The notes under the pieces are model-generated. The model searched no databases. It saw nothing but the letters and a program-made list of their open reading frames with translations, and was not told the origin of the DNA. Positions 1,219-63,985 of a DNA stretch of 64,000 nucleotides are shown piece after piece. This stretch comes from an uncultured virus (IMG/VR IMGVR_UViG_3300028840_007129) (Duplodnaviria > Heunggongvirae > Uroviricota > Caudoviricetes). A program made the position numbers and the translations under genes. Numbering within the stretch: the stretch's first letter is position 1; the number at the start of each line of letters is the position of its first letter. The stretch is from IMG/VR virus record IMGVR_UViG_3300028840_007129. One strand, written 5' to 3'.

Positions 1219-3135
1219 CTATGCCGATTTTATCGTTGCACCCCATTTACTACTTAAATTCTTTGCGAGTTCTGAAAGGTTCTTTTCCACTTTGGGCGGT
1301 GAAGTGGAAAGTTTTATAATCCGATCAGGACTAATCGGCTGAGGCGTGACCACTTCTACCGCAGTCTCTTCCGTTTCATCATCCTTTCTGGTATACCAGC
1401 CCATAAGACGGCAGTAGGAATCCTCAAGGAGTTTCTCGTACTGATCACGAGCCATTTCCTTGCACTCGTTGCGGATGATGGTATTGAGAGCAATGATGCG
1501 CTGATAGTTCTTCAACATCAGTTTCCCAATACTTCTCTTATCCTTTGAGAGGGTCATATAATCTGGATGGTCCGATGATACCTGAACCATGGTGCCCTCA
1601 ATTCGAGCCCGACGAATGTCCTGTTTACCGAAGGGCACTACGTCATAGCTGAAGCCGAACCCGTGTTTCTTTTTCCTCGGTTCGCTGTCACCGGTAGGGG
1701 TCGTATACTGTGGCTTACCTTCCGAGGTCGGGGTGCGCCCTATCGGTTTAGTGTATATTCGTCTGGCCCAAACATTACCGCAAGTTCCACAAACATACTT
1801 ATCTGAGTCTTCAAAAGCGTATATATGCCCGGCAACCGGCTTGCACCTTGGACATCTGGTAGGGGGCATGGTCAGACCACAGCTGGGGCACTTTGCCTGA
1901 TACCGTGCATCCACGGGGTCCAGGTTCGATGTAGACATGATATCTTTGAAGAGGTCTGGATTATCCTTGAAGAAGGCATCCATGTCCTTCTGCAGGTCAC
2001 GGGAGCTCCGTTCATCTCTTCGCTGGTGCTGCCCCTCGATATATTCACGGATTACCGGCCGGATAATCTCGATATCGGCATAATTCAGGATATTCATCAG
2101 GCAGTTACCGAAACTGTCAAATCCACCATCTACGAGGATCTTCCGCCGACTACCAGAGTAGACGTTGGGATTTTCACCACGGTCGATAGGGGTGATCCTG
2201 AAGTCTATCAGACCTTGAAGGAGATATTTGTTCTCTGCACTCTTGAAGATAGAGTCACGTCCTACCCGAAATCCGATAGCATCTCTGATATCCAGGGCGT
2301 TCTGGCCCTTTTCGCTTATACGGATGTCTCCGTCATTACCGGACCCGACCCATATGTCGAATGAGACCTTAAGTTCGAAGGTCCTGTCTTGAAGCGAGAA
2401 TATATCCCTACGGTTCCCGAGTTTATTGAGTAGTGGGTGTTCCTTCGATGGCAGGATAAACTGGAGGTGTTTTCCATGCCCGATCTTGGCAGAAATCTTT
2501 TTGGGTTTAGCGTCACCGCATTTCAGGAAACAGCTATATCTCTTCAGGTCGAATCCGCATTTCTTTTTCAGCTCCCGTTCCAGGGTAGAGAGCTCAAACT
2601 CCTTTTTGATATCAAATCGATTATCAAACCGAGAGGTCTTGCTTTCTCCGACACCTTCAAGAATAGTTATGGTTCCCTGTTCCCACCTTCTTAATTTTCC
2701 AAGAGCTGTAGCATTTCCACGACATTCTGTTTGGCTCATTTCACGAGCCTGCCCGACATCAGATACTACGGTATCATTCTGGCCGGTGCAGGATATCCAG
2801 TAGTACTTTTCTCCTACTTTGGAGATGATGACCATTCTTTTACTCAGGCGCATGAATGCGAGTATTCCTAAGCCGAAATGGCTCTGGCCCTTACTGGAGA
2901 CCCCCACGCTTTGACTGATCCGGTTAAGCTCATCGGCGTTCATGCCGTTGCCGTCACCATAGATATATACGCGTTTGTTATCGTAGTCTGTATCTACATG
3001 GACGACCTTGGCCCCAACCTCGTCCAGATTCTTGATGTACTCGTAGAGTGCATCGATTGGTGAGTTGTAGTCAGAGACATGAGCCATGAGGGTGTTCTCA
3101 AGGCTCCTTACTTGCCAAGCAAAGGTATCCGACAT
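1219..3135 (-). CDS. GHKL (MORC/MutL/Hsp90-like) ATPase with a C-terminal Cys-rich Zn-binding region
   Basis: Bergerat-fold motifs ALYEYIKN, GDGNGM, HFGLG and GT near the N-terminus; CPSC, CPRC and CGTC pairs later in the protein. Confidence 0.8.
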   Translation of the reverse strand: MSDTFAWQVRSLENTLMAHVSDYNSPIDALYEYIKNLDEVGAKVVHVDTDYDNKRVYIYGDGNGMNADELNRISQSVGVSSKGQSHFGLGILAFMRLSKRMVIISKVGEKYYWISCTGQNDTVVSDVGQAREMSQTECRGNATALGKLRRWEQGTITILEGVGESKTSRFDNRFDIKKEFELSTLERELKKKCGFDLKRYSCFLKCGDAKPKKISAKIGHGKHLQFILPSKEHPLLNKLGNRRDIFSLQDRTFELKVSFDIWVGSGNDGDIRISEKGQNALDIRDAIGFRVGRDSIFKSAENKYLLQGLIDFRITPIDRGENPNVYSGSRRKILVDGGFDSFGNCLMNILNYADIEIIRPVIREYIEGQHQRRDERSSRDLQKDMDAFFKDNPDLFKDIMSTSNLDPVDARYQAKCPSCGLTMPPTRCPRCKPVAGHIYAFEDSDKYVCGTCGNVWARRIYTKPIGRTPTSEGKPQYTTPTGDSEPRKKKHGFGFSYDVVPFGKQDIRRARIEGTMVQVSSDHPDYMTLSKDKRSIGKLMLKNYQRIIALNTIIRNECKEMARDQYEKLLEDSYCRLMGWYTRKDDETEETAVEVVTPQPISPDRIIKLSTSPPKVEKNLSELAKNLSSKWGATIKSA

Positions 3136-3151
3136 TTTTTACCTCTCGGAT

Positions 3152-3796
3152 TTAGATTTCTTCGGTTTGTCTCTGACCCCAAAGGATGTTGAACTCCTCA
3201 TCTGCCACACATTTCAGCTTATTAGACAAGGCATTACAGTTACCCCCTAAAAATGCTCTGATTTTTTTCATGCCATATTCTTTTATTGCCTCGTCCAACA
3301 GATAATTGGATAGAATAAGAGTCGATTCCAGGGCCTTCATCAGGTCCACTGGTTTCTCAGCGAGTGCATCAGCTTCATCCCTGGCTATATCAGCCAGAGT
3401 GAAAGTCGAGGACCTCTTATATTTCTGAGCGATGAGCCGAACGTTATCTACTTTGAGTTGTCCGGACAGAACGCTGTCGACCAATTTCTCGAACTCTTCT
3501 TCCCTGTTCTTTCCGCGCATGTTGCGATACAATCCTGGGAGGGCCGATATGGTGACAGCGTAGACATCATCGCGGGGGTTTTCGAGCCATTCAGGTCGGC
3601 GGGTCTTGACGAATCGATGAGCCTTGATGAGTTCCCTTATACGACTATAATTCATGTCCAAAAGGTTCATGTTATAACCGGCGTCTTCGAGTTGGCAGAG
3701 GAACCCCGAGATGGCAGTCCAATGTATTTGTTTTGCCAGGAATTTCGGAATGAGATCGTTAACTATCTCAACGATATGCTCAATTTCAGACGCCAT
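3152..3796 (-). CDS. Hypothetical protein, first gene of the GHKL operon
   Basis: 214-aa ORF with a GGAG SD, directly downstream of a sigma70-type promoter. Confidence 0.75.
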   Translation of the reverse strand: MASEIEHIVEIVNDLIPKFLAKQIHWTAISGFLCQLEDAGYNMNLLDMNYSRIRELIKAHRFVKTRRPEWLENPRDDVYAVTISALPGLYRNMRGKNREEEFEKLVDSVLSGQLKVDNVRLIAQKYKRSSTFTLADIARDEADALAEKPVDLMKALESTLILSNYLLDEAIKEYGMKKIRAFLGGNCNALSNKLKCVADEEFNILWGQRQTEEI

Positions 3797-3846: not shown

Positions 3847-3875
3847 AATATAACACGGATTGGCTTGACTGTCAA
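3847..3875 (-). promoter_or_regulatory. Sigma70-type promoter
   Basis: Minus strand TTGACA-17 nt-TATATT. Confidence 0.75.
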
Positions 3876-4555
3876 TAGGTAGCAAGAACTTTTTTTCTCA
3901 AGGCAAACCAACGGTCAGAATATTTGTTCTGGAAAATTCTATCGTATTCACCGCTAATTATCCGCTTAATTTGAGGCATGTAGGAACGGTGGAGAGCCGT
4001 AACCCCATGTATTCTCAGGGCCATTAAGTGATCTGGCGATCGGTAACCCTTGTTCGAAGCTATATGGTATTGGGAATAATCATTACCATAATGTTTTACT
4101 ATAAATCCGTCCCTGTAATCCTTTGCTATTATAGAGGCTACAGAGATCCCGAATACTTTTTCATCACCCTTGATTATGGTATAAACGGGGCACGGATATT
4201 CTATAGGATGTATGCCATCAATGAAAAGAGCGTCTGGCCTTACAGGCAAGCCATCAACGGCTCTCTGCATAGCCAGCTTATCGGCGGTTACTAGATTTCT
4301 AATCTTGCATATTTCCTGAGCTTTGACTACCCCGTAGGAGTAGACTACCCTGTTTCTTAATTCCGGAGCCAGCCTATATATAATTTCGTGTTTGAGCTTT
4401 TTTGAATCGTCTACGAGTTTATTCTCGAAGGGGGCCGTGATAAGAACAGCGCATGCCACTAGCTCTCCAAAGATAGCTCCCATTCCTACTTCATCAATAA
4501 AGGCAGGTGAGTTGTATTGAGATGTGATATGCTCTATAAAGGGGTCTGATATCAT
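3872..4555 (-). CDS. rnhB: Ribonuclease HII
   Basis: Motifs IDEVG, DDSKKL, LFIDG, IIKGD, ASIIAKDYRD, NKGY and HRSY. Confidence 0.93.
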   Translation of the reverse strand: MISDPFIEHITSQYNSPAFIDEVGMGAIFGELVACAVLITAPFENKLVDDSKKLKHEIIYRLAPELRNRVVYSYGVVKAQEICKIRNLVTADKLAMQRAVDGLPVRPDALFIDGIHPIEYPCPVYTIIKGDEKVFGISVASIIAKDYRDGFIVKHYGNDYSQYHIASNKGYRSPDHLMALRIHGVTALHRSYMPQIKRIISGEYDRIFQNKYSDRWFALRKKVLATY

Positions 4556-5287: not shown

Positions 5288-5623
5288 TTAGTATCTGTTA
5301 CGGCTATAACCACCACCCCCACCATAGCCTCCTCCACCATAACCGCCGCCACCGTAACTACCGCCACCACTGCTGCGGGAAGGCCTTTCCTTGGCCTCGT
5401 TTACGGTGAGTTTCCGACCATTGAAGTCCTGGCCGTTGAACGCCTCGATGGCCTTATGGCTGTCGGATACCTCCACGAAGCCAAAACCACGAGACTTTCC
5501 GGTTTCACGATCGGTGATGATCGTGGCAGACTGTACGTCCACTACTGACGCGAAGTGACTCTTGAGATCCTCTTCCGTGACCGACCACGGAAGGTTACCG
5601 ACGTAGAGCTTTGCTGACACCAA
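5288..5623 (-). CDS. RRM (RNP-1) RNA-binding protein with a Gly/Tyr-rich tail
   Basis: RNP2 LYVGNL, RNP1 RGFGFVE, GRKLTVNEAK, and a GGGGY-repeat tail. Confidence 0.95.
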   Translation of the reverse strand: MVSAKLYVGNLPWSVTEEDLKSHFASVVDVQSATIITDRETGKSRGFGFVEVSDSHKAIEAFNGQDFNGRKLTVNEAKERPSRSSGGGSYGGGGYGGGGYGGGGGYSRNRY

Positions 5624-7217
5624 ACCAATCCTTTCCCTTGCACCAAAGGTGCATTACTGTTATAACTAGCATACCAACCGGTATGCATACCCATATTATA
5701 CTATGCGACATCCCTTTTTTGCACTTTTTTTCTGTGTGTGCCGTTTCAGCCAGTCTCCTGAGATATCTGCTTAATTCCTCGGGAGTTCTATTATCCAGTG
5801 ATTCAGATAGTCTTCTTAACTCACGCTGGAAATAATCCACATCCACGCTATATCTATTCATATTTTCCTCAATTTGCAACACTTATTCCGCTAGAAAGGC
5901 TCCTACCGAGATGCTCCCATAATAATGACCACTTCCAGGCTTCGGCTTCTATAGCACTTAAACGATCTAAGAGGGCCTTATACTCACATTCTTTGCGGCC
6001 ATTAGGTCCTGGGGCAGAGACGTCATAAAACGCATGGATAACTTTTTTGATAAAGTCATCATCGCTCATATTATGGGCTGACCGGGCGTCATAGACCCCC
6101 TGTATAGCTGCAATAGTGTCTACTTTCATTTTTCGTCCTGGTTTTCTTTTAGGATCTCGTATCTTGTCTTTCCTGACGCCCTATTTGACCGACATTGCCT
6201 GTTAGAACATTTCAAACTAAGCTCTTTAGCCTCTTTATCGTAAAAGGTATCAAGGGGATCCCCACATATGTCACAGGTTGGGACCGTGGCTTTATTTAAT
6301 TTAAACATGTCAGGAACATTCCAAGAATTTTCATACTTCTTACCCGCGCTCATTTTGAGAGCCTTCATCTACCAACCCTTTCAGCCAACCAATTATCTCT
6401 TTTCTGATTGAATCTCTATCCTTCTTATATTTGTAGTGGTTCAAATGTTCATTGATGATGAATTTAAGGGCACTAACAACATCGTGACTATGCATTTTTA
6501 TTTTCACGCCAACAGACTTTATATACTTCTTGTAATATTCAGGTAGACAGCTCAAATGGTAGAAATTCTTATAATATTTATCCCATATAACATAGCGTTC
6601 TTTACCGGGACCTATGGGGAGTTTGCATCTATGACAAGTAGATTTTTTGGGGCTTATTTCAAGCGTTACCTTAAAATATTCCTTCCCAAAGTTTTTTCTT
6701 ACCTCTCCACTCCATTCTTGTAGTCTTATAATCTTGGTAGTAGGGGGATGGTCCCTGTCCCCTATAACAGGTTCATCTTCATATCTTCCAATGATTAGGT
6801 CAAAGCGCCCCACTTCAGGGCCCCCTTGCCGGATCGAATATCACCCGTGACTTCAATAACCTTGAGAGACTCCTGATTATATCCGGTCCTGAAACTATTA
6901 ATAACAGATAAGGAGGACGCCCGATTTAGAAGCCTGTTTCCCAAATCATCAAAATCCATAAGTACAGTTCCCTTCATAAGATGATCCGGGTGGTGAGGAC
7001 TAAGTGTATACAAGGGTGTTCCATCGCAGTCACGATCATGGCTCACTACCCACAATCTTGCCTTAAATATCTCGCAAGCCCCCTCGCCATACCAGGTTTC
7101 ACCAGTCACTTCAACGAGTGAGCCTATAGGTATATCATGCTTTATACTCAGATTGTTTTCCCTGATTGTTTTCCCATTATCATCGATGATGTCCCCAACG
7201 AATACCGCGTTTTTCAT
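5595..7217 (-). CDS. Run of five small overlapping phage hypothetical genes (5595-5882, 5869-6129, 6126-6368, 6340-6813, 6795-7217)
   Basis: Overlapping stop/start junctions; two carry CxxC Zn-ribbon motifs. Confidence 0.6.
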
Positions 7218-7477
7218 ACAGTCCTCGTGAACTTATCGAGCTCTTCGAAATAGGTTTCCAGAGCCCTGAGAGCCCCTGATTTTTTACGTTCTAAACTGAT
7301 AGACCCCGTCGCGTAGTCAATAATAATCACTCTAAAGGGTACTGCTCCTCAAGTTCCGGATCTGAGTGATCATGCGCTTCTTCAATGCCTTCTTGTAGCT
7401 CTTCGGCAGATAGAACATCATCATCAAACGGGTATCGTTCAAGTTCTTCCATTGGTTCCCATGCCTTTCAAAAATTT

Positions 7478-7672
7478 TTATTGCAGCCAACGTTTACCGC
7501 ACTCGCCCGAAGTATGATACATGCACCCCGACGCAACAGGGCATTCCGAACGACGGCTCGGCATTTTGGGCTGCGGCTGTTGGTTGATGTGGATCGCAGG
7601 TTCCGTCAGTTTTGCGCGGCCAGCTACGCTATCGTGATACTCCTGCGAATCCTCAAACGGCGAATATGACAT
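7478..7672 (-). CDS. Cassette A small ORF (MSYSPFEDSQ...GKRWLQ), reading through its attC-like hairpin
   Basis: ATG at 7672 just inside the unit start GTTGGTTG; the stop lies beyond the downstream GTT core. Confidence 0.55.
   Translation of the reverse strand: MSYSPFEDSQEYHDSVAGRAKLTEPAIHINQQPQPKMPSRRSECPVASGCMYHTSGECGKRWLQ
7484..7586 (-). repeat. attC-like site 1
   Basis: Minus strand CAACCAAC-AG-CCGCAGCCCAAAATG...CTTCGGGCGAGTGCGG-TAAAC-GTTGGCTG; imperfect hairpin. Confidence 0.75.
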
Positions 7673-7690
7673 TGACGGCCTCACTTTATT

Positions 7691-7761
7691 CAACCAACGT
7701 CCGATGCAAGCCGCAGTTTGTACTCAAATTGACGTAGTGAACGGCTTGCATTTGTTGGTTG
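7691..7761 (-). repeat. attC-like site 2
   Basis: Minus strand CAACCAAC-AA-ATGCAAGCCG-TTCACTACGT-CAATTTG-AGTA-CAAACTG-CGGCTTGCAT-CGGAC-GTTGGTTG; perfect 10-bp arm. Confidence 0.85.
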
Positions 7762-7798
7762 CTGTATGCGACCGCTCCACAGTTTTAGCGAACGGGTA

Positions 7799-7930
7799 CT
7801 ATCCCTGAAGCTCCGTAACCACACGACTGTAGAATACCGGGATGAACAACAGCCACACAATACGGTGACGGATAACCTCACACTTGCCATACTTGCCACG
7901 TTTGATTTCTAACCACTGCCTATATACCAT
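7799..7930 (-). CDS. Cassette B small ORF, 43 aa (MVYRQWLEIKRGKYGKCEVIRHRIVWLLFIPVFYSRVVTELQG)
   Basis: Hand-translated; GGAGGT SD; lies between attC-like sites 3 and 2. Confidence 0.65.
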   Translation of the reverse strand: MVYRQWLEIKRGKYGKCEVIRHRIVWLLFIPVFYSRVVTELQG

Positions 7931-7975
7931 GATAACCTCCAGTGAGCGATTTACAAAATGGTCGGTCGCATATTG

Positions 7976-8126
7976 CAACCAACGTTCTCAGCAATGGCGA
8001 AGTTACCCGGCACCCCCGCACGCCTCGCAACCACAACCATGCTCGTGCCCGTTGCTATTGTAAATACCCAACGCGATACGACGCCGGGTAATTTCCGTAG
8101 GCTCCGCGCCATTGCTGTGTTGTGGG
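7976..8126 (-). repeat. attC-like site 3
   Basis: Minus strand CCCACAAC-A-CAGCAATGGCG...AAATTACCCGGC...GCCGGGTAACTT-CGCCATTGCTG-AGAAC-GTTGGTTG. Confidence 0.85.
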
Positions 8127-8215
8127 GCGTGACGTGCCGACTCCTTATTTCTCCACGCGGCTAGAATCATAAGGTCTGTTGGATCGCCAATTATTTGAGA
8201 ATCATCAATTGACAT
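8003..8215 (-). CDS. Cassette C small ORF, C-terminal half encoded inside the attC-like hairpin
   Basis: GGGAGGT SD; 70 aa; ends within site 3. Confidence 0.6.
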   Translation of the reverse strand: MSIDDSQIIGDPTDLMILAAWRNKESARHAPQHSNGAEPTEITRRRIALGIYNSNGHEHGCGCEACGGAG

Positions 8216-8271
8216 TGAAACCTCCCAGTTGTTTTAAGCCGCGCCTACAATAAAGACTCGGCACGGCATGT

Positions 8272-8412
8272 ACCACAACGTCCTGCTAAATGGCTGATAG
8301 TTTTGCCACGGCTTGTTCCAAATATTCTGCCACATGATTAACATGACCCATCGAATTACGCTGAAGTGCCTTTTCAACAAGTGGCAAAATTTCAGCCTTT
8401 AGCTGTTGTGTG
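8272..8412 (-). repeat. attC-like site 4
   Basis: Minus strand CACACAAC-A-GCTAAAGGCTGAAATTTTGCCACTTG...CAAGCCGTGGCAAAACTATCAGCCATTTAGC-AGGAC-GTTGTGGT. Confidence 0.85.
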
Positions 8413-8531
8413 TCTGTAAAATTTGCCTCCATAAGTTCAATGGCGGCATTCCACACGTCAGCCAATGTGGGCTTTTTGGTACAGGTTTGCAAATAGTTAC
8501 TTAACGAACGCTCGTATCTTATTGCCGCCAT
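8286..8531 (-). CDS. Cassette D small ORF, 81 aa
   Basis: GGAGGT SD; the C-terminal QQLKAEILPLVE...AVAKLSAI is encoded by site 4. Confidence 0.7.
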   Translation of the reverse strand: MAAIRYERSLSNYLQTCTKKPTLADVWNAAIELMEANFTDTQQLKAEILPLVEKALQRNSMGHVNHVAEYLEQAVAKLSAI

Positions 8532-8559
8532 TTATAACCTCCAAAAGCAAATTTTATTG

Positions 8560-8624
8560 CACACAACTTCATCAATAGCGCAATAAAGTTCGTCATTTGA
8601 AACTAACGCTGATACTGTTGAAAT
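8560..8624 (-). repeat. Degenerate attC-like site 5 or insertion boundary
   Basis: Minus strand ATTTCAAC...GAAGTTGTGTG with weak internal pairing; supplies the GTT start of cassette D. Confidence 0.4.
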
Positions 8625-8641
8625 CGTTTTCACTCAGATTT

Positions 8642-9475
8642 TCAAGGGAGCCTTTCCTCTCCCCGATTCTGATTCATGTGGCGTTCTCTCACCTCACCGA
8701 GTAGGACACCCGAACGGTCAAGAACTTTGTCGCAGAGATTAGCTACTGAAAGGCTATCAGTATGGTACATCTCAGAAAGCCGGTCTATTAACTTATTTCT
8801 AGAAATCACATAATTTTCTTCCGTCATTGAATACCCCACGCATAAGTTTCACTTATTTCAAAACCCAATAAATATATCCGAATCCGCCCTCATACTTATA
8901 TGCCGCTTTACCAATTTCTTTCTTCTCCACGAGCCCCATAAGTCGCGCTTCAACAACTTCAATGTCTATGCTATCGAAGTGCCCTATAACCTCATCATGA
9001 GATCTGTACCCCTTGCTCAGAATGAACTTTAAAAGTTCCGCCTGTGTCATATTGGGGCCTCTTCGTGTACGATAACTTCTTAAATACACTTTTACGGCAA
9101 GTTTACCTGATTATCTCTGATATCGATTACTCTTCTATTGAGAAACCTGAATAATTCTAATTCAGCACTATTACCTATTTCCTCAAGACGCTGTCCTGCC
9201 ATTCTTGAATCCAACATCAATCGTAGACGTATGTTTGAGACCTCTAAGGCAGAAATGCCTATGGTATCTATCGTTTTTGCATCCTTAATACTCAACTGCC
9301 GCACAAACCCCTTAATCTTTCGGGGATTGTCGAGAACGGGGATGAGGTATGGTACTATGGCAGTAGAGTCTCCATTGATACCTATTCCTGCCTCTTCAAG
9401 ACATACAGAGAGCAATTCCATACGTTGCTCTGGGGTCGGATCATGAATAAGTACCTCATCTGACATAGCTATCAA
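8642..9475 (-). CDS. Three small hypothetical genes (8642-8839, 8853-9089, 9092-9475)
   Basis: Contiguous co-oriented ORFs. Confidence 0.55.
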
Positions 9476-31274: not shown

Positions 31275-31316
31275 GGTTACTCACCTCCTTCCTGTAAGAC
31301 TCTTTGTGAGTCCTTG

Positions 31317-31383
31317 TTTATACGGGATAGTATGGCGACGTGCTGCTTTGAGCATGTGCGAAGAGAACGCCATACGGTTGTTG
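31317..31383 (-). repeat. attC-like site c (degenerate core)
   Basis: Minus strand CAACAAC-C-GTATGGCG...CGCCATAC-TATCCC-GTATAAA. Confidence 0.6.
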
Positions 31384-31506
31384 TAAACCGCGCTTCATGG
31401 CACCGGGCCTATATCGGCATACCTCATCGTCAGTATCGGGATCGCACCACGATATCGGATCGCCGCTCCCTAGCCTGACCCAAAAAGCGCAATCTTTACA
31501 TTGCAT
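31318..31506 (-). CDS. Cassette ORF, Cys-rich, 62 aa
   Basis: MQCKDCAFW...; starts just after the GTTGCTA core and reads through site c. Confidence 0.6.
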   Translation of the reverse strand: MQCKDCAFWVRLGSGDPISWCDPDTDDEVCRYRPGAMKRGLQQPYGVLFAHAQSSTSPYYPV

Positions 31507-31508
31507 AA

Positions 31509-31566
31509 TAGCAACCGCCTCAATGTATGCTGGCTGCCTTGAGCTGGCATACTTGAGCTGTTATAC
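31509..31566 (-). repeat. attC-like site b
   Basis: Minus strand GTATAAC-AG-CTCAAGTATGC...GCATACATTGAG-GCG-GTTGCTA; 58 bp. Confidence 0.7.
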
Positions 31567-31798
31567 GCTGTTCGGCCTCTTCCTTAGCTTTCAGCCGCGC
31601 ATTCTTCATGAATTTATCTGAATCAAAACCATCTTTACCCTGGCGAATTGCTTCATCAATTTGAACTTTGCGAAAATCATTGTCGAATTTATTTCTCATA
31701 ATCAAAGCAAACCTTGATAAGATACACTCTAAATCTCGGTTGACTGAATCCGTTGAGTTTTTTAAACACTCTTGATACCACGAAATTTTATTTTTCAT
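31520..31798 (-). CDS. Cassette ORF, 92 aa, AT-rich
   Basis: AGGAG SD after the GTTAGGC core; ends inside site b. Confidence 0.7.
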   Translation of the reverse strand: MKNKISWYQECLKNSTDSVNRDLECILSRFALIMRNKFDNDFRKVQIDEAIRQGKDGFDSDKFMKNARLKAKEEAEQRITAQVCQLKAASIH

Positions 31799-31817
31799 TT
31801 TGTTTTTCTCCTGCGCG

Positions 31818-31888
31818 GCCTAACGTTGACAAATGGCGAAGTGGTGCTTCACCATTTAGCGATAGCGCCGCCATTTGTTTGTTGGTTG
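31818..31888 (-). repeat. attC-like site a with a canonical GTTRRRY core
   Basis: Minus strand CAACCAAC-AAA-CAAATGGCG-GCGCTATCGCT-AAATGGTG-AAG-CACCACTT-CGCCATTTG-TCAAC-GTTAGGC. Confidence 0.85.
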
Positions 31889-42116: not shown

Positions 42117-43590
42117 TTACTCATCGTCGTCGGCGGTTAGGTCTTCCAGATACTCCGGATTGGCTTCGGAGATGACAGCCTCGACGGTGACTACGTAGGT
42201 CTTGCCGTCATCGGCCTCGAACACCACCTCACCGAGAATCTCGGAGGAGCAGGAGGCATCCAGGAGGTCTCCGCAACTCTCCAGGAGTTCTTCCTTGGTG
42301 GTGATGGAGTCATTGAGTTCACCGGTGCGAATCCACTTCGTGATCTTCATGTTACAGGCTCCTGGCTAGGGTTTCGATACGCTTGTCCAGATAATCATTC
42401 AGTCCGATGAACTCCAGAATGTTTGAACGATTCATGCTCCGCCACAGACCAGGATACTTATCCGGAGTCTCAGAGAGGTGACCAAGCAGGGCATCCTGCC
42501 AGACCTGGGGCATCTCGTTCCAGGCCACTCGACGATAGTGCCGGTAGATGTGCCAGTCACTTACGGAGGTGGAACAGAGCTGGGGCTTGTTGGGGATGGG
42601 GTATGACAGGAGTTCCCCGATACCTTCGTAGCACCCGTTGACCCGCTCATCGACGAAGACCAGGAGGTAGGTTTTGTTCTTACGCTCCAGGTACAGGCGG
42701 ACAATCTCGTTTTTCTTCGGCCAGCCCATGTTATTTCCTCTTATTCACGAAACGAAGGACTTCCCGTTTCGTTCGGGCGTCTTTCAGATGCATCCCCTGG
42801 TGGTCAAACACGGCGTACTTGGGAAGGTTCCAATGCCGATAGTCGCATCGTCTATAGATGTGGAGAGTGCCGACAGTTTCCACAGGAATAATCTCGACCC
42901 CGTTATATTCCTCGTAGTAAGGCATGGCTATTCCTTTGCTCGCATTTCGATGAGAGATTCCAGACTGGTTCCGATAAGGTCCGGAAGCCGGTCATCCGGT
43001 ATAGCCTTCAGCAGCTCCTTCAGTTCAGGGAGGATTGCCAGGCACACCTTCAACCGGTACTCCTCGGGAACCTCAAGCCAGCACGATGTGCCGCATTCTC
43101 CCTTGGAGTTTATCGCGTTGATACGGATAGACTCGTCGGACAGTCCTTTCTGTACGTTTATTCCCGTACAATGGACATAGCCGTTTCGACCCTTGAATTG
43201 GATAAGTCTTGTCTTACAGGCCTCACGCCATTCGACTGTCTCATCGAAGTCGATTGAGATGTTCATTTATTATTCCAGGGAAGCGGTCTCGAAAGCGGTG
43301 GACTTCCAGATTTTGGTCTTGATCTGACCCTTCTTCGGGTCATAGAAGAAGGGGATGATACGGTACTTCTTGGTACCCACCTGAATCTCCCGGTGGAAAA
43401 CGATCCTCTCGGGAGTTATCTCGATGAACTCCTGGAGCACCTCATTCATGAGGGCATCATGCTGTGCGTAGAGAACCTTGAGTCCCTCAATCTTCTTGCG
43501 AAGAGTCTTGAGCTGTTCCAGCTTCTTTTGAACGGAACCGAAAGATGCGGAGATGGAGTTCGTGGACTTCATAAAGATAGTCTCCTTCAA
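42117..43590 (-). CDS. Five small hypothetical genes (42117-42350, 42352-42729, 42731-42925, 42928-43266, 43270-43590)
   Basis: 1-3 nt spacing between ORFs. Confidence 0.65.
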
Positions 43591-44777
43591 ATGTTTGGGT
43601 CGAGGTGTACGCGCTTACCCCACTCAACAGGGGGCCGCTTCCCTTCAGGCAATACCCACAGGACATGAGCATTCTTAGGAGGGCTACAGGAGTCAGCTTC
43701 CCCGTCAGTGAGGATGATGACACCCCGATACCTCCGCTTATCAACCAGACTGATGACAGGTCCGAAAGACGTACCGCCTCTCCCGGTGAAAGTATAGGAG
43801 TTATGGTGGCGGTCGAAGGGTCTGGGTCCGTCTGTGATGTCAGCGTCGAACATGACCACATCGATGGGCATGTAGTCCAACATCCCGTTGATGACACCCA
43901 GGAAAGACGATTGGAGATGTCCACTGATAGACATGCTGTCATCGATGGCTACCAACAGCCTGTCTGCCGTACCCCTTTTGGATCCGGGGTGGAGGATACC
44001 TGTGCGACGGTTGGGCCGCTTACGGGTAGGCTCCCGATTCTTCCAGATAAGGTTGCCTGCGAACCTCCTGATGATGTTCCGCCAGTTTATCCGACGTACT
44101 TGAGCCGCCAGAATAATCTCTTTGAGACCCTCGGAGACTGACCCCCACTGACCGTTTAGGTCTATCTCCCGAATCTTCGCCCGGATAACCTCTTCGGCTA
44201 TCTCGTCTTCCTTCCAACCGGAGTGGTCGTCGATAGGCTGCCCGTCCCGGTCCGGCTGCCCTCCAGACTGACCAGACTGCGGGCTGCCTTCCTTACCAGG
44301 CACTGCCTGCTCACGGAGGAACCGCTCGTACCACTCGGCGCTCTGCTTCTCCTCTATGGTCGGGTAGAGGTCTTTGAACGTAGCGACGTACGTCCCGAAG
44401 AGCTTACCGTTTGATTTCGGGGGCTCGCACCGGTCCTGAACTTCGGGTATAAGCTCATTGACCGCCAGGTCACAGGGGATATTACCGAGAGAGCGTGACG
44501 TGCAGTGATGGAGAGCTATGTGCATGGCCTCGTGGAAGAGTACGTAAGTAGCCTCGGAATCCTCCAGACTCATGAGGAAATCAGGGTTATAGACCAGCTC
44601 GAAGCGGTGCCCGCCAAGAACCCGGACACCCATGGTCTCGACATCGCGGGTCATTCTCTTCGACGCCAGGCCAAGTATCCTGTTGACGAAGGAGAACCTG
44701 ATGGTGAGGAAGTTCACCAGCCACTCGAACCTCTCCTGGGCTTTGGAGAGGTTCGTGACCGTTGTGATGTCGTTCAT
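43587..44777 (-). CDS. DUF2201-type metallopeptidase + VWA domain protein
   Basis: YNPDF, HEAMH (HExxH), DLAVN, DDHSGW, MIDAS-like AIDDSMS, GRGGTSF and IILTDG. Confidence 0.88.
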   Translation of the reverse strand: MNDITTVTNLSKAQERFEWLVNFLTIRFSFVNRILGLASKRMTRDVETMGVRVLGGHRFELVYNPDFLMSLEDSEATYVLFHEAMHIALHHCTSRSLGNIPCDLAVNELIPEVQDRCEPPKSNGKLFGTYVATFKDLYPTIEEKQSAEWYERFLREQAVPGKEGSPQSGQSGGQPDRDGQPIDDHSGWKEDEIAEEVIRAKIREIDLNGQWGSVSEGLKEIILAAQVRRINWRNIIRRFAGNLIWKNREPTRKRPNRRTGILHPGSKRGTADRLLVAIDDSMSISGHLQSSFLGVINGMLDYMPIDVVMFDADITDGPRPFDRHHNSYTFTGRGGTSFGPVISLVDKRRYRGVIILTDGEADSCSPPKNAHVLWVLPEGKRPPVEWGKRVHLDPNI

Positions 44778-44787
44778 AGCAGGCTCC

Positions 44788-45918
44788 TTACTTCTGTACC
44801 AGACTGAAGAGATACTCCCCGATGGCCTTATTACTCCGAGACCATTTCACGGCCTCGGGGCGATTGGCATTGAGAAGATCCGTCCACATCCGAGATGCGG
44901 ACTCCTTGGGGAGGGCCTTCAGGAAGGTGAAGAGATTATCGTTCTGCTTCGCCTTGATGGTGTTGCCCTCCTTGAAGTGTCTTGCCACAAGGTCACAGTA
45001 GAAGGTGGCCTCGGCAGGATTCGTCACCTTGGAGAGCGTGGCCTCGGTCTTGGAGGGGTTGTTGAGGATATCTTCTACGGACAGAACATCGAAGTCCTTG
45101 CTCACGAACTCCACGAAGTTCACCGCCACCGTGTTACCGACATACCCCTTCGCCAGAAGCGTGAGATAATCGAGATCCTTGATGGGATTGTCACCGTTCT
45201 CGGTCATGTGCTTGATGTTGTTGGACAGCATCACCCATGACCGCCGACAGGGATAGACCTTACCGGGGTCCATCTGCTCGGGGGTGTCCAGATCCAGCGG
45301 CACCTTGGTAATGTACTGGATGATGGCCGGATGTACGCCGATGGTGAGGGCGTGGTCCATCCACTCGGGGACGGTTGGTTTGAAGTCATTCACGAAGAAC
45401 CGGCTCAGCAGGGCCGGGTCGATGTCGAGGACGGCGTAGATGTCCTGGTCGGCGTTGGCGGCGGAGACCACCCGCCAGCCCATCGGGAGCGGGTTGAGGT
45501 TGAGGGTGTAGTCCAGACTGATTTCGAAGCCAGTCTGCTGGACTTCCCTGGTGGCCCGGTCCAGCTCGTCGAGGAACAGGAACCCGAAGGAGTCGGGGTC
45601 ACGGGGGAACCAGACTGGGAGGTCATGGACCATGACGTTGGGAATCTCTACCGTCTCCTGCACCGCCAGGCCGCCCTTGTAGACGGTCCTGGTGAAGGGG
45701 TACATGGACAGGGTCCGAGGCATCCCGATAACGTCACCGGGTTCCCGTTGGGAAAGTCTGATATCAATGAATTCGTAAGCCCTCCCGGTCTGTGCCGAAA
45801 GCTCAAGGGCACACTGCCGGACGACTTCGGACTTACCGATACCGTGACGGCCCCTCAGCAGCATGGAGTGCCGGGGAGCCATGCCCTTCAGGGTTCGCTT
45901 TGTCATGGTAACGTTCAT
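44788..45918 (-). CDS. MoxR/AAA_5-like ATPase, partner of the VWA protein
   Basis: Walker A GRHGIGKS, IDIRLSQ, Walker B LFLDELDRA, SAAN, DPALLSRF and RRSW. Confidence 0.88.
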   Translation of the reverse strand: MNVTMTKRTLKGMAPRHSMLLRGRHGIGKSEVVRQCALELSAQTGRAYEFIDIRLSQREPGDVIGMPRTLSMYPFTRTVYKGGLAVQETVEIPNVMVHDLPVWFPRDPDSFGFLFLDELDRATREVQQTGFEISLDYTLNLNPLPMGWRVVSAANADQDIYAVLDIDPALLSRFFVNDFKPTVPEWMDHALTIGVHPAIIQYITKVPLDLDTPEQMDPGKVYPCRRSWVMLSNNIKHMTENGDNPIKDLDYLTLLAKGYVGNTVAVNFVEFVSKDFDVLSVEDILNNPSKTEATLSKVTNPAEATFYCDLVARHFKEGNTIKAKQNDNLFTFLKALPKESASRMWTDLLNANRPEAVKWSRSNKAIGEYLFSLVQK

Positions 45919-63289: not shown

Positions 63290-63304
63290 CGTATCACCGC
63301 TTGA

Positions 63305-63639
63305 CACCCTATAGTTGACTGCAAGGTGTCACATATTCACACCTTGCAATGCCGCCTCGTTGACGGGCACCCTATAGTTGATTGCAAGGTGTCACATATT
63401 CACACCTTGCAGTCAATGCCGCCTCGTTGACGGGCACCCTATAGTTGATTGCAAGGTGTCACATATTCACACCTTGCAATCAATGGTGCCGTCCCGTTGA
63501 CGGGCACCCTATAGTTGATTGCAAGGTGTCACATATTCACACCTTGCAATCAATGGGTGTCACATATTCACACCTTGCAATCAATGGTGCCGTCCCGTTG
63601 ACGGGCACCCTATAGTTGATTGCAAGGTGTCACATATTC
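63305..63639. repeat. Tandem array of 63-70 bp double-hairpin units
   Basis: CACCCTATAGTTGA(T/C)TGCAAGGTGTCACATATTC starts at 63305, 63368, 63435, 63505 and 63606, plus a partial copy near 63556. Confidence 0.95.
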
Positions 63640-63879
63640 GCAATTCCCCTATATTATAGGAATAGGGGAAAATTGTAAAAAAGCTATCTTTGGCATGATC
63701 CTTGCAGGCGAAAAATCGCCCGTTTAAGGTACACGATGTCCGGGCCCTGAATTTTGTTTCCCATCCCGGTCCTAGCTCTGTTCTATTTCTCCCCTATTTC
63801 TCCCCTACTTTTCCTCTACCATTTCTCTCACCCCACCGTATTTCTCCGGTCCTGGTCCTGGTCCTGGTTCCGTCTTCTC

Positions 63880-63985
63880 ACCCTTACCATTACCCTTACC
63901 ATTACCCTTACCATTACCCTTACCATTACCCTTACCATTACCCTTATCCTTACCATTACCCTTATCCTTACCATTACCCCTACCC
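63880..63985. repeat. 12-bp tandem repeat (ACCCTTACCATT)n
   Basis: Directly visible; reads GKGN repeats on the minus strand. Confidence 0.9.

Follow-up and report, generated by a model that had tools for sequence, protein, structure and literature searches.

Integrons are the textbook gene-capture device of bacteria. The locus described here raises the question of whether a viral genome can carry a comparable array of mobile gene cassettes, and if so whether the array belongs to the known integrons or to a system of different design. The window analysed is a stretch of 64,000 nt from an uncultured virus; its assignment as a phage comes from PHROG matches and from relatives in large viral contigs, rather than from structural genes in the window.

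Layout of the array

A reading made from the letters alone (the sequence-only reading) had described four imperfect hairpins between 7484 and 8412, and all four are present where it placed them. Two elements can be added to its list: a fifth half-site at 8560-8567, which brings the span of the array to 7484-8567, and a second small cluster farther along the window.

Site A, 7484-7586, plus strand: CAGCCAAC / GTTTA / stem ... stem / CT / GTTGGTTG; terminates cassette A; covariance model E = 0.009
Site B, 7691-7761, plus strand: 71-nt hairpin with covariation; terminates cassette B; covariance model E = 1e-15
Site C, 7976-8126, plus strand: 151-nt hairpin; terminates cassette C; covariance model E = 9e-6
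Site D, 8272-8412, plus strand: 141-nt hairpin; terminates cassette D; base plan matched by eye, missed by the covariance model
Half-site, 8560-8567, plus strand: CACACAAC, without a hairpin behind it
Degenerate family site of the second cluster, 31316-31387, plus strand: covariance model E = 2.5e-11
Family site of the second cluster, 31817-31888, plus strand: covariance model E = 1.2e-15; 18-nt identity to 7751-7768

The plus strand is the bottom strand relative to the array ORFs. On it, all four hairpins follow one base plan (..CAAC, five unpaired nt of the form GTYYN, a stem, 1-2 nt, GTTG...), and the site at 31817-31888 is the fifth site with this plan. Site B divides into P1, a stem of 10 bp, P2, an inner stem-loop, and P3, a mini-hairpin. 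Lengths are 71, 103, 141 and 151 nt in the array and range from 58 to 166 nt across the family. Thirteen family members (short sites of the window and of seven other loci) served to build a covariance model, which recovers five window sites at E <= 0.01, all on the plus strand, and misses D, a homologue of which is present in the fourth cassette of a related genome, G006. A strict hairpin rule applied to the window finds B, C and 31817-31888, again all on the plus strand, while each of 20 window shuffles gave between zero and two matches. The core CAACCAAC occurs five times in the 64 kb (both strands), four of them within 7579-7983. The half-site is the start of the array and, on the gene strand, an attI-like junction; it reads GAAGTTGTGTG in that direction, and G006 has the same sequence 6 nt past the stop codon of a recombinase gene. 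In the second cluster, site 31817-31888 precedes the SD and ATG of a minus-strand ORF (31520-31798) by about 20 nt.

The cassettes of the array measure about 207, 285, 296 and 288 nt, and each holds one small ORF.

ORF D, 8286-8531, minus strand: 81 aa; SD GGAGG upstream
ORF C, 8003-8215, minus strand: 70 aa; SD GGGAGG upstream
ORF B, 7799-7930, minus strand: 43 aa from the ATG at 7930; SD GGAGG upstream; C-terminal half hydrophobic
ORF A, 7478-7672, minus strand: 64 aa from the ATG at 7672

The sequence-only reading had each tiny ORF followed by its hairpin. The hairpins stand, but the simple order does not: ORFs D, C and A extend into hairpin sequence, with the stop codon of ORF D (8286) inside hairpin D and that of ORF C (8003) inside hairpin C, so that the arrangement is not simply an ORF and then a hairpin. 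About 42 codons at the end of ORF D lie in site D, and site C encodes the C-terminal part of ORF C. Site A carries 37 additional nt in other assemblies, inserted between 7513 and 7514, and ORF A of the window is frameshifted relative to that longer version. ORF D has a single distant homologue (41% identity) among 5.8 billion proteins searched and matched no Pfam or PHROG family; the ORF D protein itself is encoded on a contig of 186 kb. ORF B is swapped for another ORF in three related contigs (L047, L055 and L056) that keep the cassette ends at 78-100% identity.

Folding, covariation and strand

Folding was scored against dinucleotide shuffles using DNA parameters, with z values given for the plus and the minus strand. 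Hairpins B (-5.0 / -4.8), C (-2.7 / -3.1) and D (-4.1 / -5.2) fold better than their shuffles, whereas hairpin A (-0.35 / +0.11), with z near zero, folds no better in its window version. Across the 13 short sites, whose interior has a conserved three-helix arrangement, P1 is 98.4% paired and P2 100% paired, leaving only two unpaired cells in the two helices, and both sides have changed in eight of ten P1 pairs and four of six P2 pairs. None of 500 shuffles reached the observed covariation score, and sliding the partners by 1-3 columns dropped pairing from 92.5% to 31-46%. The two helices contain 17 G.T or T.G cells, which pair on the plus strand only, and one G.T is invariant in 13 of 13 sites. 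Six of the 13 carry GCGNAGC or GCGNNAGC on the plus strand, a motif reported to form extra-stable DNA mini-hairpins (PMC13037366).

Covariation in all helices would also be expected of structures that act only as RNA, such as RNase III-type processing stalks, or antisense RNA or type I toxin-antitoxin loci with 5'-3' lock helices, with no dedicated recombination. The long-range helices of 14-31 bp that surround the SD and start codon of every ORF fit such a reading, as do the hydrophobic C-terminal segments of ORF B and of the cassette ORF in another contig, L030. It is nonetheless highly improbable: it requires transcription of the plus strand against the genes, it takes the mini-hairpin, a DNA motif, for an RNA element, and it leaves unexplained both the hybrid outer core bases and the identical cassettes in unrelated contexts that are described below. 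No Rfam family matched anywhere in the window at the gathering threshold, and at E <= 10 the region 7200-8900 gave nothing credible (one chance-level match, E = 6). A tRNA scan returned nothing usable. A hammerhead-like topology was rejected, as the helix order does not fit.

Cassette ends and hybrid cores

The cassette bodies between the hairpins have inverted arms of their own.

Cassette A body, 7574-7703, no strand assigned: 14-nt inverted arms 7574-7587 / 7690-7703 (86%); z about -1
Cassette B body, 7754-7983, no strand assigned: 21-nt inverted arms 7754-7774 / 7963-7983 (90%); z -2.4 / -3.1
Cassette C body, 8119-8279, no strand assigned: 31-nt inverted arms 8119-8149 / 8249-8279 (81%); z -4.3 / -4.6
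Cassette D body, 8402-8567, no strand assigned: inverted arms 8402-8426 / 8547-8567; z -3.7 / -3.3

It had been proposed that the core at one end of each unit complements that unit's own other end, and this is borne out: GTTGTGG (8119) pairs with CCACAAC (8273), GTTGTGTG (8405) with CACACAAC (8560), and GTTGGTTG (7754) with CAACCAAC (7976). The complementarity reaches well past the cores first recognised, into arms of 14-31 nt. The loop of the cassette A body contains the SD and ATG of ORF A, the unique arm ends of cassette B covary among relatives, and the arms of cassette C are also found in contig L106. Within the hairpins of the 13 short sites, the inner CAAC/GTTG is 96% paired and the outer four bases only 63.5%. 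The outer four bases are complementary at 58 of 68 positions across the cassette as against 58 of 104 within the hairpin, and the next 16 nt at a mean of 8.6/16 across as against 4.8/16 within (17 and 26 comparisons, respectively, from nine arrays). A separate array of 11 sites gave 28/40 for the outer bases across the cassette and 21/44 within the hairpin. Several adjacent pairs have arm matches at chance level only, and the adjacent pair at 31.3 kb and 31.8 kb has an outer-base complementarity of 0/4. Overall, the predicted pairing of the outer four core bases is across the cassette rather than within the hairpin.

Terminal inverted repeats of 14-31 nt on either side of ORF bodies could also suggest MITE-like units moved by a transposase, with the hairpins as preferred targets. 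We regard this as extremely improbable, given that the shared units always consist of one hairpin and one ORF body with both breakpoints at plus-strand 5' cores, that no target-site duplication is visible in the sequence, and that the 112 window ORFs scanned include no transposase. Shufflon or invertase sites were rejected for their wrong flank pattern, and IS200/IS605-type ends and Frpo-like single-strand promoters were considered and set aside.

Cassettes in other contexts

The sequence-only reading had asked whether units differ between relatives exactly at the cores, and shared cassettes do end at the AAC core, in unlike contexts. In contigs L055 and L056, a 316-nt stretch that runs between the AACG of one site and the CAAC of the following site is 100% identical, and the two contigs are unrelated outside it. 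Cassette B of the window (7689-7985) matches contig L037 at 89% identity, with nothing beyond. In L030, from a T4-like phage, a cassette ending ..CAACCAAC abuts AT-rich DNA with a RegA homologue (PF01818, 1e-23). One relative has a cassette with Vsr/Dcm/NotI-like content. Contigs from the source runs depart from the window just past cores, at 7985 and 8281. These contigs also include one skip at 8147-8254, with a 28-letter side between inverted arms, which is considered unreliable. Neither a circular form nor an excision variant was seen among these contigs, in which rare variants would not show.

Modular exchange of this kind is known for PeSLs, which flank ORFans and yield mini-circles according to two reports (Arbiol et al. 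2010, PMC2839356; Comeau et al. 2014, PMC4122927). On a PeSL-like reading of these units as regulatory cassettes, the hairpins would act as terminators or attenuators, each with a promoter after it, and homologous recombination between such conserved elements would shuffle the units, as it does in T4-type phages. The family member in the T4-like phage is consistent with this, and so is cassette B, whose first 50 nt, with the SD and a TTGCAA motif among them, match between the window and L055/L056 at 100% identity while the remainder is only 78% identical. Yet a sigma-70 scan found three sites where 2.2 were expected, with a single 9/12 match at the cassette starts, no T-tract follows the hairpins, and the breakpoints are sharp, falling at a 4-5-nt core without flanking homology. 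The wobble pairs, moreover, fit the strand antisense to the genes, and an mRNA-sense hairpin would therefore be the poorer fold. Taken together, this makes a PeSL-like origin quite unlikely. A sigma-70 promoter in the cassette arms was dropped as a candidate, the promoter/terminator scan being not above shuffles.

Searches beyond these relatives were sparse in matches. When one representative genome from each of 185,579 species was searched for the 18-mer of the sites, its single occurrence as a family site was on a MAG contig of 9 kb, and the remainder of that MAG lacks it. Of the 17 loci picked up by a degenerate 17-mer scan, a single one, the G001 contig, proved to be a true member, and blastn found no counterpart of 7200-8900 in 50,697 phage records. 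A flanking 140-aa protein has relatives at eight viral loci, without synteny or hairpin matches, and for a flanking 238-aa protein no relatives were found.

A candidate recombinase

The sequence-only reading had looked to a host IntI or to a phage recombinase outside the window, and in agreement with this a search of the 64 kb for a tyrosine recombinase found none: among the 112 window ORFs scanned with Pfam there was neither PF00589 nor a recombinase of any other kind. PF00589 was likewise absent from nine of ten records searched (nine with family hairpins, plus G002), including G004 (94% complete) and G007 (88%). Translated comparison (tblastx) among all family contigs yielded no shared protein fit to be a common enzyme.

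G006 encodes a 268-aa Xer/IntI-like recombinase (PF00589, 1e-26). It scores 130 bits against XerA and 125 bits against integron integrase (cut-off 265), stays under all curated NCBIfam cut-offs, and matches the integron integrase family in two stretches. Its gene points toward the array: a GTTG core lies 6 nt past the stop codon, followed by at least four cassettes. A search of viral contigs for close relatives returned only the protein itself, and its clade has two other viral-contig members, L109 (54% identity), in which a GTTG cassette start directly follows the recombinase gene, and L110 (49%), with family-type hairpins downstream of it. The clade's alignment with XerA (E = 5e-46) is full-length, and that with IntI4 (E = 2e-30) covers two stretches. 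Among the best 80 of 119 relatives of the recombinase, the covariance model found sites at only one locus, G006 itself, and the model is accordingly called narrow. Since the G006 record is classified as a provirus, this enzyme may simply be the integrase of a prophage.

Departures from canonical attC sites

According to PMC5027507, canonical attC sites have R boxes RYYYAAC and GTTRRRY and a central spacer of 5-6 nt in each arm. The foot triplets of the present hairpins resemble attC, with AAC in 24 and GTT in 26 of 26 sites (counted by eye), and their lengths and variable terminal structure fall in with the attC pattern of 57-141 bp. Three other features do not agree. RYYYAAC and GTTRRRY are each found in one of the 26 sites (again by eye), which upholds the earlier view that most cores depart from the consensus. 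The spacer is 4-6 nt, mostly 5, on the AAC arm and 1-2 nt opposite (13 aligned sites plus A, C and D). The two or three extrahelical bases that attC has opposite AAC are lacking, P1 being a clean 10-bp helix, and the extra unpaired bases are on the AAC arm. With these three canonical features failing, an IntI-type reaction is an analogy. Neither the window nor G006 has the makeup of a complete integron (an intI with the IntI-specific extra domain, an attI, and an array divergent from intI). A CALIN is defined by at least two neighbouring attC sites without an integron integrase in their vicinity; the window has four sites in 1.1 kb and no PF00589 among its 112 scanned ORFs, and its array is thus CALIN-like.

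The array could still be a strict CALIN, if the IntI of an unsequenced host had moved ordinary integron cassettes out of that host's sedentary chromosomal integron and into phage DNA. The array shares the integron geometry, with each ORF followed by its site, a probable crossover at AAC of the bottom strand and all cassettes in one orientation. Its sites form a homogeneous family, as those of chromosomal integrons do, and one cassette stands at a bare GTT-type junction in the T4-like phage. CALINs in virulent phages have been published, with IntI1 recombining five out of the six sites assayed, and reports of attC in phages are limited to scattered canonical clusters (Qi et al. 2023, PMC9892861). 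This origin is unlikely, however, in view of the R boxes, of a spacer geometry and helix that differ from the attC description in PMC5027507, of the near absence of the 18-mer from the 185,579 species, and of the only array-adjacent recombinase being short, Xer-like and under the integron-integrase cut-off.

Proposed mechanism

An integron-like cassette array, recombinase-less in this window, is real, and the earlier reading of it as cassettes with attC-type hairpins is supported as far as sequence comparison reaches. The stretch 7489-8567 is probably an array of four mobile gene cassettes operating as those of an integron do. On the gene strand, a cassette would begin just past a GTT core, with its own SD and small ORF, and its terminal site would fold as single-stranded DNA on the opposite (plus, bottom) strand. 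The folded strand would present a foot (..CAAC), five unpaired nt, a stem of 10-13 bp, a variable interior (in short sites an inner stem-loop and a GC-rich mini-hairpin), the returning stem, 1-2 nt and GTTG.... A tyrosine recombinase of the Xer/IntI group, of the kind encoded beside the arrays of relatives, could then cut and exchange one strand at the AAC of the 5' foot, which would free the cassette as a circle that inserts at a GTT half-site or a further site of this kind. With the crossover inside the foot, every arrayed site would be a hybrid, whose outer four bases and adjoining 14-31 nt come from the neighbouring cassette and pair with its other end. As the cassette ends are complementary, a free cassette would fold into one long rod.

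A wider reading is more tentative, and we hold it at somewhat less than an even chance: that the array belongs to an integron counterpart which phages carry as a complete system of their own and which has spread among unrelated lineages (tailed phages of 40-130 kb, a T4-like phage, a large phage-like genome). Such a system would rely on a short, Xer-like recombinase without the IntI-specific domain and on three-helix ssDNA sites with a DNA mini-hairpin motif. Its cassettes, with their terminal inverted repeats, would form rod-like single-stranded circles when free, and arrays without an enzyme, such as this one, would be served in trans. A literature search found no description of such a system. 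If it is real, with a separate site design and an Xer-type enzyme in the role that integrons have in bacteria, gene-cassette capture has evolved or diversified beyond IntI, the trade of ORFan and restriction-modification genes among phages would be explained, and a new structure-specific recombination system would be at hand, whose arrays probably escape standard integron finders.

Comparison with known systems

The array resembles integrons and CALINs in its co-oriented small cassettes, each an ORF plus an imperfect hairpin site with AAC...GTT feet, in the breakpoints of shared cassettes at AAC on the strand opposite the ORFs, and in its hybrid sites, folding bias to the bottom strand and lack of an integrase inside the cluster. 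Unlike attC, the sites have R boxes off consensus, an asymmetric spacer and no extrahelical bases opposite AAC, and the short ones have a conserved three-helix interior. Unlike integron cassettes, the units have ends that pair over a further 14-31 nt and an SD each, and unlike in integrons, the 268-aa Xer-like recombinase of relatives is transcribed toward the array. With PeSLs the array shares phage ORFans flanked by conserved stem-loop motifs, modular exchange between phages, proposed circular intermediates and the lack of an integrase in the phage. PeSLs (PMC2839356, PMC4122927) combine a sigma-70 promoter with a terminator stem-loop and recombine by homology, whereas the array has no promoter/terminator signal, breaks at a 4-5-nt core and folds on the antisense strand. 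As for the enzyme, for which solved Xer, archaeal XerA and IntI structures (4a8e, 5hxy, 2a3v) offer a comparison, the G006 recombinase is about 50 residues shorter than IntI and, in contrast to Xer and XerA, adjoins a cassette array rather than acting at dif.

Hairpin sites and their structure

The four hairpins that a sequence-only reading had claimed are present, and all four follow one base plan on the plus strand. A foot ending in CAAC is followed by five unpaired bases beginning with GT and then by a stem of 10–13 bp with a variable interior; at the 3′ end the stem returns, followed by one or two bases and a foot that starts with GTTG.

Features of the array (feet read from the sequence)
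7484–7586, plus strand: site A; foot ending CAAC at 7484, returning foot beginning GTTG at 7579
7691–7761, plus strand: site B; foot ending CAAC at 7691, returning foot beginning GTTG at 7754
7976–8126, plus strand: site C; foot ending CAAC at 7976, returning foot beginning GTTG at 8119
8272–8412, plus strand: site D; foot ending CAAC at 8272, returning foot beginning GTTG at 8405
8560–8567: fifth CAAC-type half-site
Minus strand: ORF A, 64 aa; SD and ATG in the loop of the cassette body
Minus strand: ORF B, 43 aa from the ATG at 7930; SD and ATG in the loop
Minus strand: ORF C, 70 aa; SD and ATG in the loop of the cassette body
Minus strand: ORF D, 81 aa; SD and ATG in the loop of the cassette body

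Both strands were folded with DNA parameters and compared with dinucleotide shuffles, giving z scores (plus/minus strand) of −5.0/−4.8 for site B, −2.7/−3.1 for site C and −4.1/−5.2 for site D. Site A folded no better than its shuffles (−0.35/+0.11) and is weak in the version that the window carries. The sequence CAACCAAC has five copies in the 64 kb (both strands), four of them within 7579–7983. A strict structural rule recovered B, C and an extra site at 31817–31888, every match being on the plus strand; applied to 20 shuffled windows, it gave 0–2 matches each. Given the concentration of CAACCAAC and the strict-rule matches compared with shuffles, the clustering of hairpin sites is not due to chance.

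Thirteen short sites of the family were aligned and tested against a proposed structure, with 500 shuffles for covariation. Stem P1 (10 bp) is 98.4% paired with eight pairs altered on both sides, and stem P2 (6 bp) is 100% paired with four such pairs; none of the 500 shuffles reached the observed covariation score, and sliding the partners by 1–3 columns lowered pairing from 92.5% to 31–46%. P1 and P2 together hold 17 G.T or T.G cells (one pair is G.T in 13/13 sequences), whose gene-strand counterparts would be A.C mismatches. The sequence of a third small helix is variable, though its stem stays GC-rich; in 6/13 sites this helix reads GCGNAGC or GCGNNAGC, a motif reported, in excerpts of PMC13037366, as an extraordinarily stable DNA mini-hairpin. 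The presence of this motif favours structures that act as DNA rather than RNA. The covariance model proposed by the earlier reading was built from this alignment and detected five window sites at E ≤ 0.01, all on the plus strand; it found no sites in eight control loci of relatives of the 140-aa protein encoded beside the array.

Cassette bodies

The segments between hairpins also self-fold (z from −1 to −4.6): inverted arms of 31 nt (81%), 21 nt (90%) and 14 nt (86%) link each GTTG foot with the next CAAC foot. The complementarity between each core and its unit's own start, already described from the sequence, is thus real and reaches further than stated. Hairpins thus abut one another along the whole region, sharing 8-nt feet. 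An ORF body and its following hairpin, if circularised at the foot, would make one long rod. Hairpins do not merely trail the genes, since ORFs D, C and A extend into their own hairpins.

Pfam and PHROG gave no family for any of ORFs A–D, and a search of 5.8 billion proteins gave ORF D a single distant homolog, at 41% identity. At 7513|7514, 37 bases are missing from the window; they are found at full depth in the Logan contigs of both window-bearing runs and in metagenome locus L051. The gap is bordered by imperfect 8-nt direct repeats and shifts the frame of ORF A; in the longer form, this ORF has a four-cysteine tail at its C-terminus.

Relatives and evidence for cassette movement

Relatives were sought with an 18-mer from site B in viral, metagenome and genome collections. 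The family is present in viral contigs. Metagenomes yielded 47 loci, 17 of them true members (12 in foreign contexts, two copies of contigs already in the viral set and three of the window's own DNA), and genomes 18 loci with one true member, a 9-kb MAG contig. A gapped pattern search added eight loci in seven viral contigs of 23–131 kb, one with 11 covariance-model matches within 6 kb. No proteins common to the contexts of these sites were found; one context is a tailed phage with capsid, portal and terminase genes, and one is a T4-like phage with RegA. The MAG contig carries a 2.7-kb cassette with Vsr, a C-5 cytosine methylase and a NotI-like restriction enzyme between sites at 85–175 and 2923–3027 (reverse complement). 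Elsewhere, viral contig L003 has four direct GTTGGTTGCTGTATG-like copies in a 250-nt intergenic region (2990–3290), at least three of them in the loop of a short 7–9-bp stem upstream of a gene. None of these copies is matched by the covariance model, and they may be empty or half sites.

Within the 13 short sites, pairing reaches 96% for the inner foot and 63.5% for the outer four bases. In nine arrays, across-cassette complementarity of these outer bases holds at 58/68 positions, compared with 58/104 within the hairpin, and the next 16 nt match at a mean of 8.6/16 across the cassette versus 4.8/16 within the hairpin (at least 10/16 in 10 of 17 cassette pairs). Among the pairs of these nine arrays, the one from 31.3 kb to 31.8 kb failed, with 0/4 outer bases; an additional array gave 28/40 versus 21/44 for the outer bases.

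Comparisons between relatives locate the breaks. Loci L055 and L056 share 316 nt at 100% identity, from the AACG of one site to the CAAC of the next, and are unrelated on either side; only one of two tandem CAAC copies is present in one of these loci, which is what crossing over within either repeat would produce. Cassette B with its site (7689–7985) is 89% identical to locus L037 with no match beyond: the adjacent hairpins are different, and so is the core directly after GTT. Three loci (L047, L055 and L056) keep both ends of cassette B (78–100% identity) around a different ORF, and in another (L030) the cassette ends at CAACCAAC against AT-rich T4-like DNA. In the window-bearing runs, other contigs track the window to 7985 and 8281, just past the cores, and then diverge; a low-depth contig joins 8244–8281 via 29 other letters to 7744–7766. 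As the sequence-only reading had foreseen, breakpoints lie at GTT-type cores: both ends of every shared unit are at plus-strand 5′ feet. These alignments indicate that the mobile unit is an ORF with its 3′ site, as in integron cassettes.

A candidate recombinase and the genomic setting

The absence of an intI-type recombinase, also anticipated, was borne out: neither PF00589 (the tyrosine recombinase domain) nor a transposase was found among 112 window ORFs scanned. In ten records searched (nine with family hairpins, plus G002), PF00589 occurred in G006 alone, a 47.6-kb record classed as a provirus, with completeness estimated at 92%. It encodes a 268-aa recombinase whose best NCBIfam matches are XerA (130 bits) and integron integrase (125 bits, in two stretches), both below cut-offs; a profile of the enzyme's clade best matched solved XerA structures, with IntI4 matched in two stretches. 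Directly upstream (L107 344–919) lies a gene for an Enc34-type ssDNA-binding protein, a possible helper for folding single-stranded sites. A GTTG core stands 6 nt past the recombinase stop codon; beyond it, on that strand, come at least four cassettes bearing family sites, one with a hairpin homologous to window site D. Read on the gene strand, the half-site at 8560–8567 has 11 bases in common with the first G006 site, a likeness too short to weigh heavily.

The recombinase belongs to a tight clade of about 33 homologs (43–100% identity) with two other members on viral contigs. In L109 a GTTG cassette start directly follows the gene, with only 144 nt left, and L110 has family-type hairpins downstream. 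No tyrosine recombinase was found in the site-bearing records G004 (94% complete) and G007 (88%); since both are nearly complete, enzyme-less arrays are common.

Within the window, 100 of 135 candidate ORFs are on the minus strand. Gene content includes RNase HII, an RRM protein, FtsK-like and ParB-like proteins, a sigma factor, AAA ATPases and radical SAM enzymes, with PHROG matches among the proteins; no virion genes are in view in the 64 kb. Relatives of the 140-aa protein occur in eight viral contigs of 19–221 kb (five of 113–221 kb), the ORF D protein was found on a 186-kb contig, and the window likely belongs to a large phage. The two flanks of the array as a whole show weak mutual complementarity (12/500 shuffles reach the score); an insertion into a small palindromic site could account for this, but the signal is only suggestive.

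Several other features were observed. The RRM-domain protein (5288–5623, minus strand; PF00076, 2e-19) has a Gly/Tyr-rich tail and adjoins the RNase HII gene (3872–4555), an unusual cargo for a phage-like genome. At 43587–45918 (minus strand) a MoxR-like ATPase (phrog_1297) is paired with a DUF2201 VWA/metallopeptidase protein, and DUF3150, DUF1257, DUF5983 and ParB/KorB-like genes are located in other parts of the window, a combination that is typical of plasmids and conjugative elements as well. The stretch at 63300–63640 holds five or more copies in tandem, each of about 63–70 bp with a 39-nt palindrome and a TTGACG...TATAGT-like motif; they may represent iterons or repeated promoters, and a 12-nt tandem repeat follows at about 63870–63980.

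Comparison with known systems

The nearest phage analogue, judging from excerpts of PMC2839356 and PMC4122927, is the PeSL cassettes of T4-type phages. Those cassettes are described there as resting on promoters, terminators and homology, a basis for which no support was found in the window array. Our literature search found no description of an integron-like system in phages that relies on a Xer-type enzyme; CALINs (attC clusters without intI) have already been published from phages, according to excerpts of PMC9892861. Set against the canonical attC features in excerpted text of PMC5027507, the window-family sites differ in several ways. Each R-box consensus is matched in 1/26 sites (counted by eye), in keeping with the earlier remark that most cores deviate from GTTRRRY. 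The attC spacer is symmetric (5–6 nt), whereas that of the window family is 5 versus 1–2 nt, and the extrahelical bases that attC has opposite AAC are missing. The AAC/GTT triplets and the length range are nevertheless those of attC, and the window-family sites may, judging from their sequences, also use the bottom strand and cross over at AAC.
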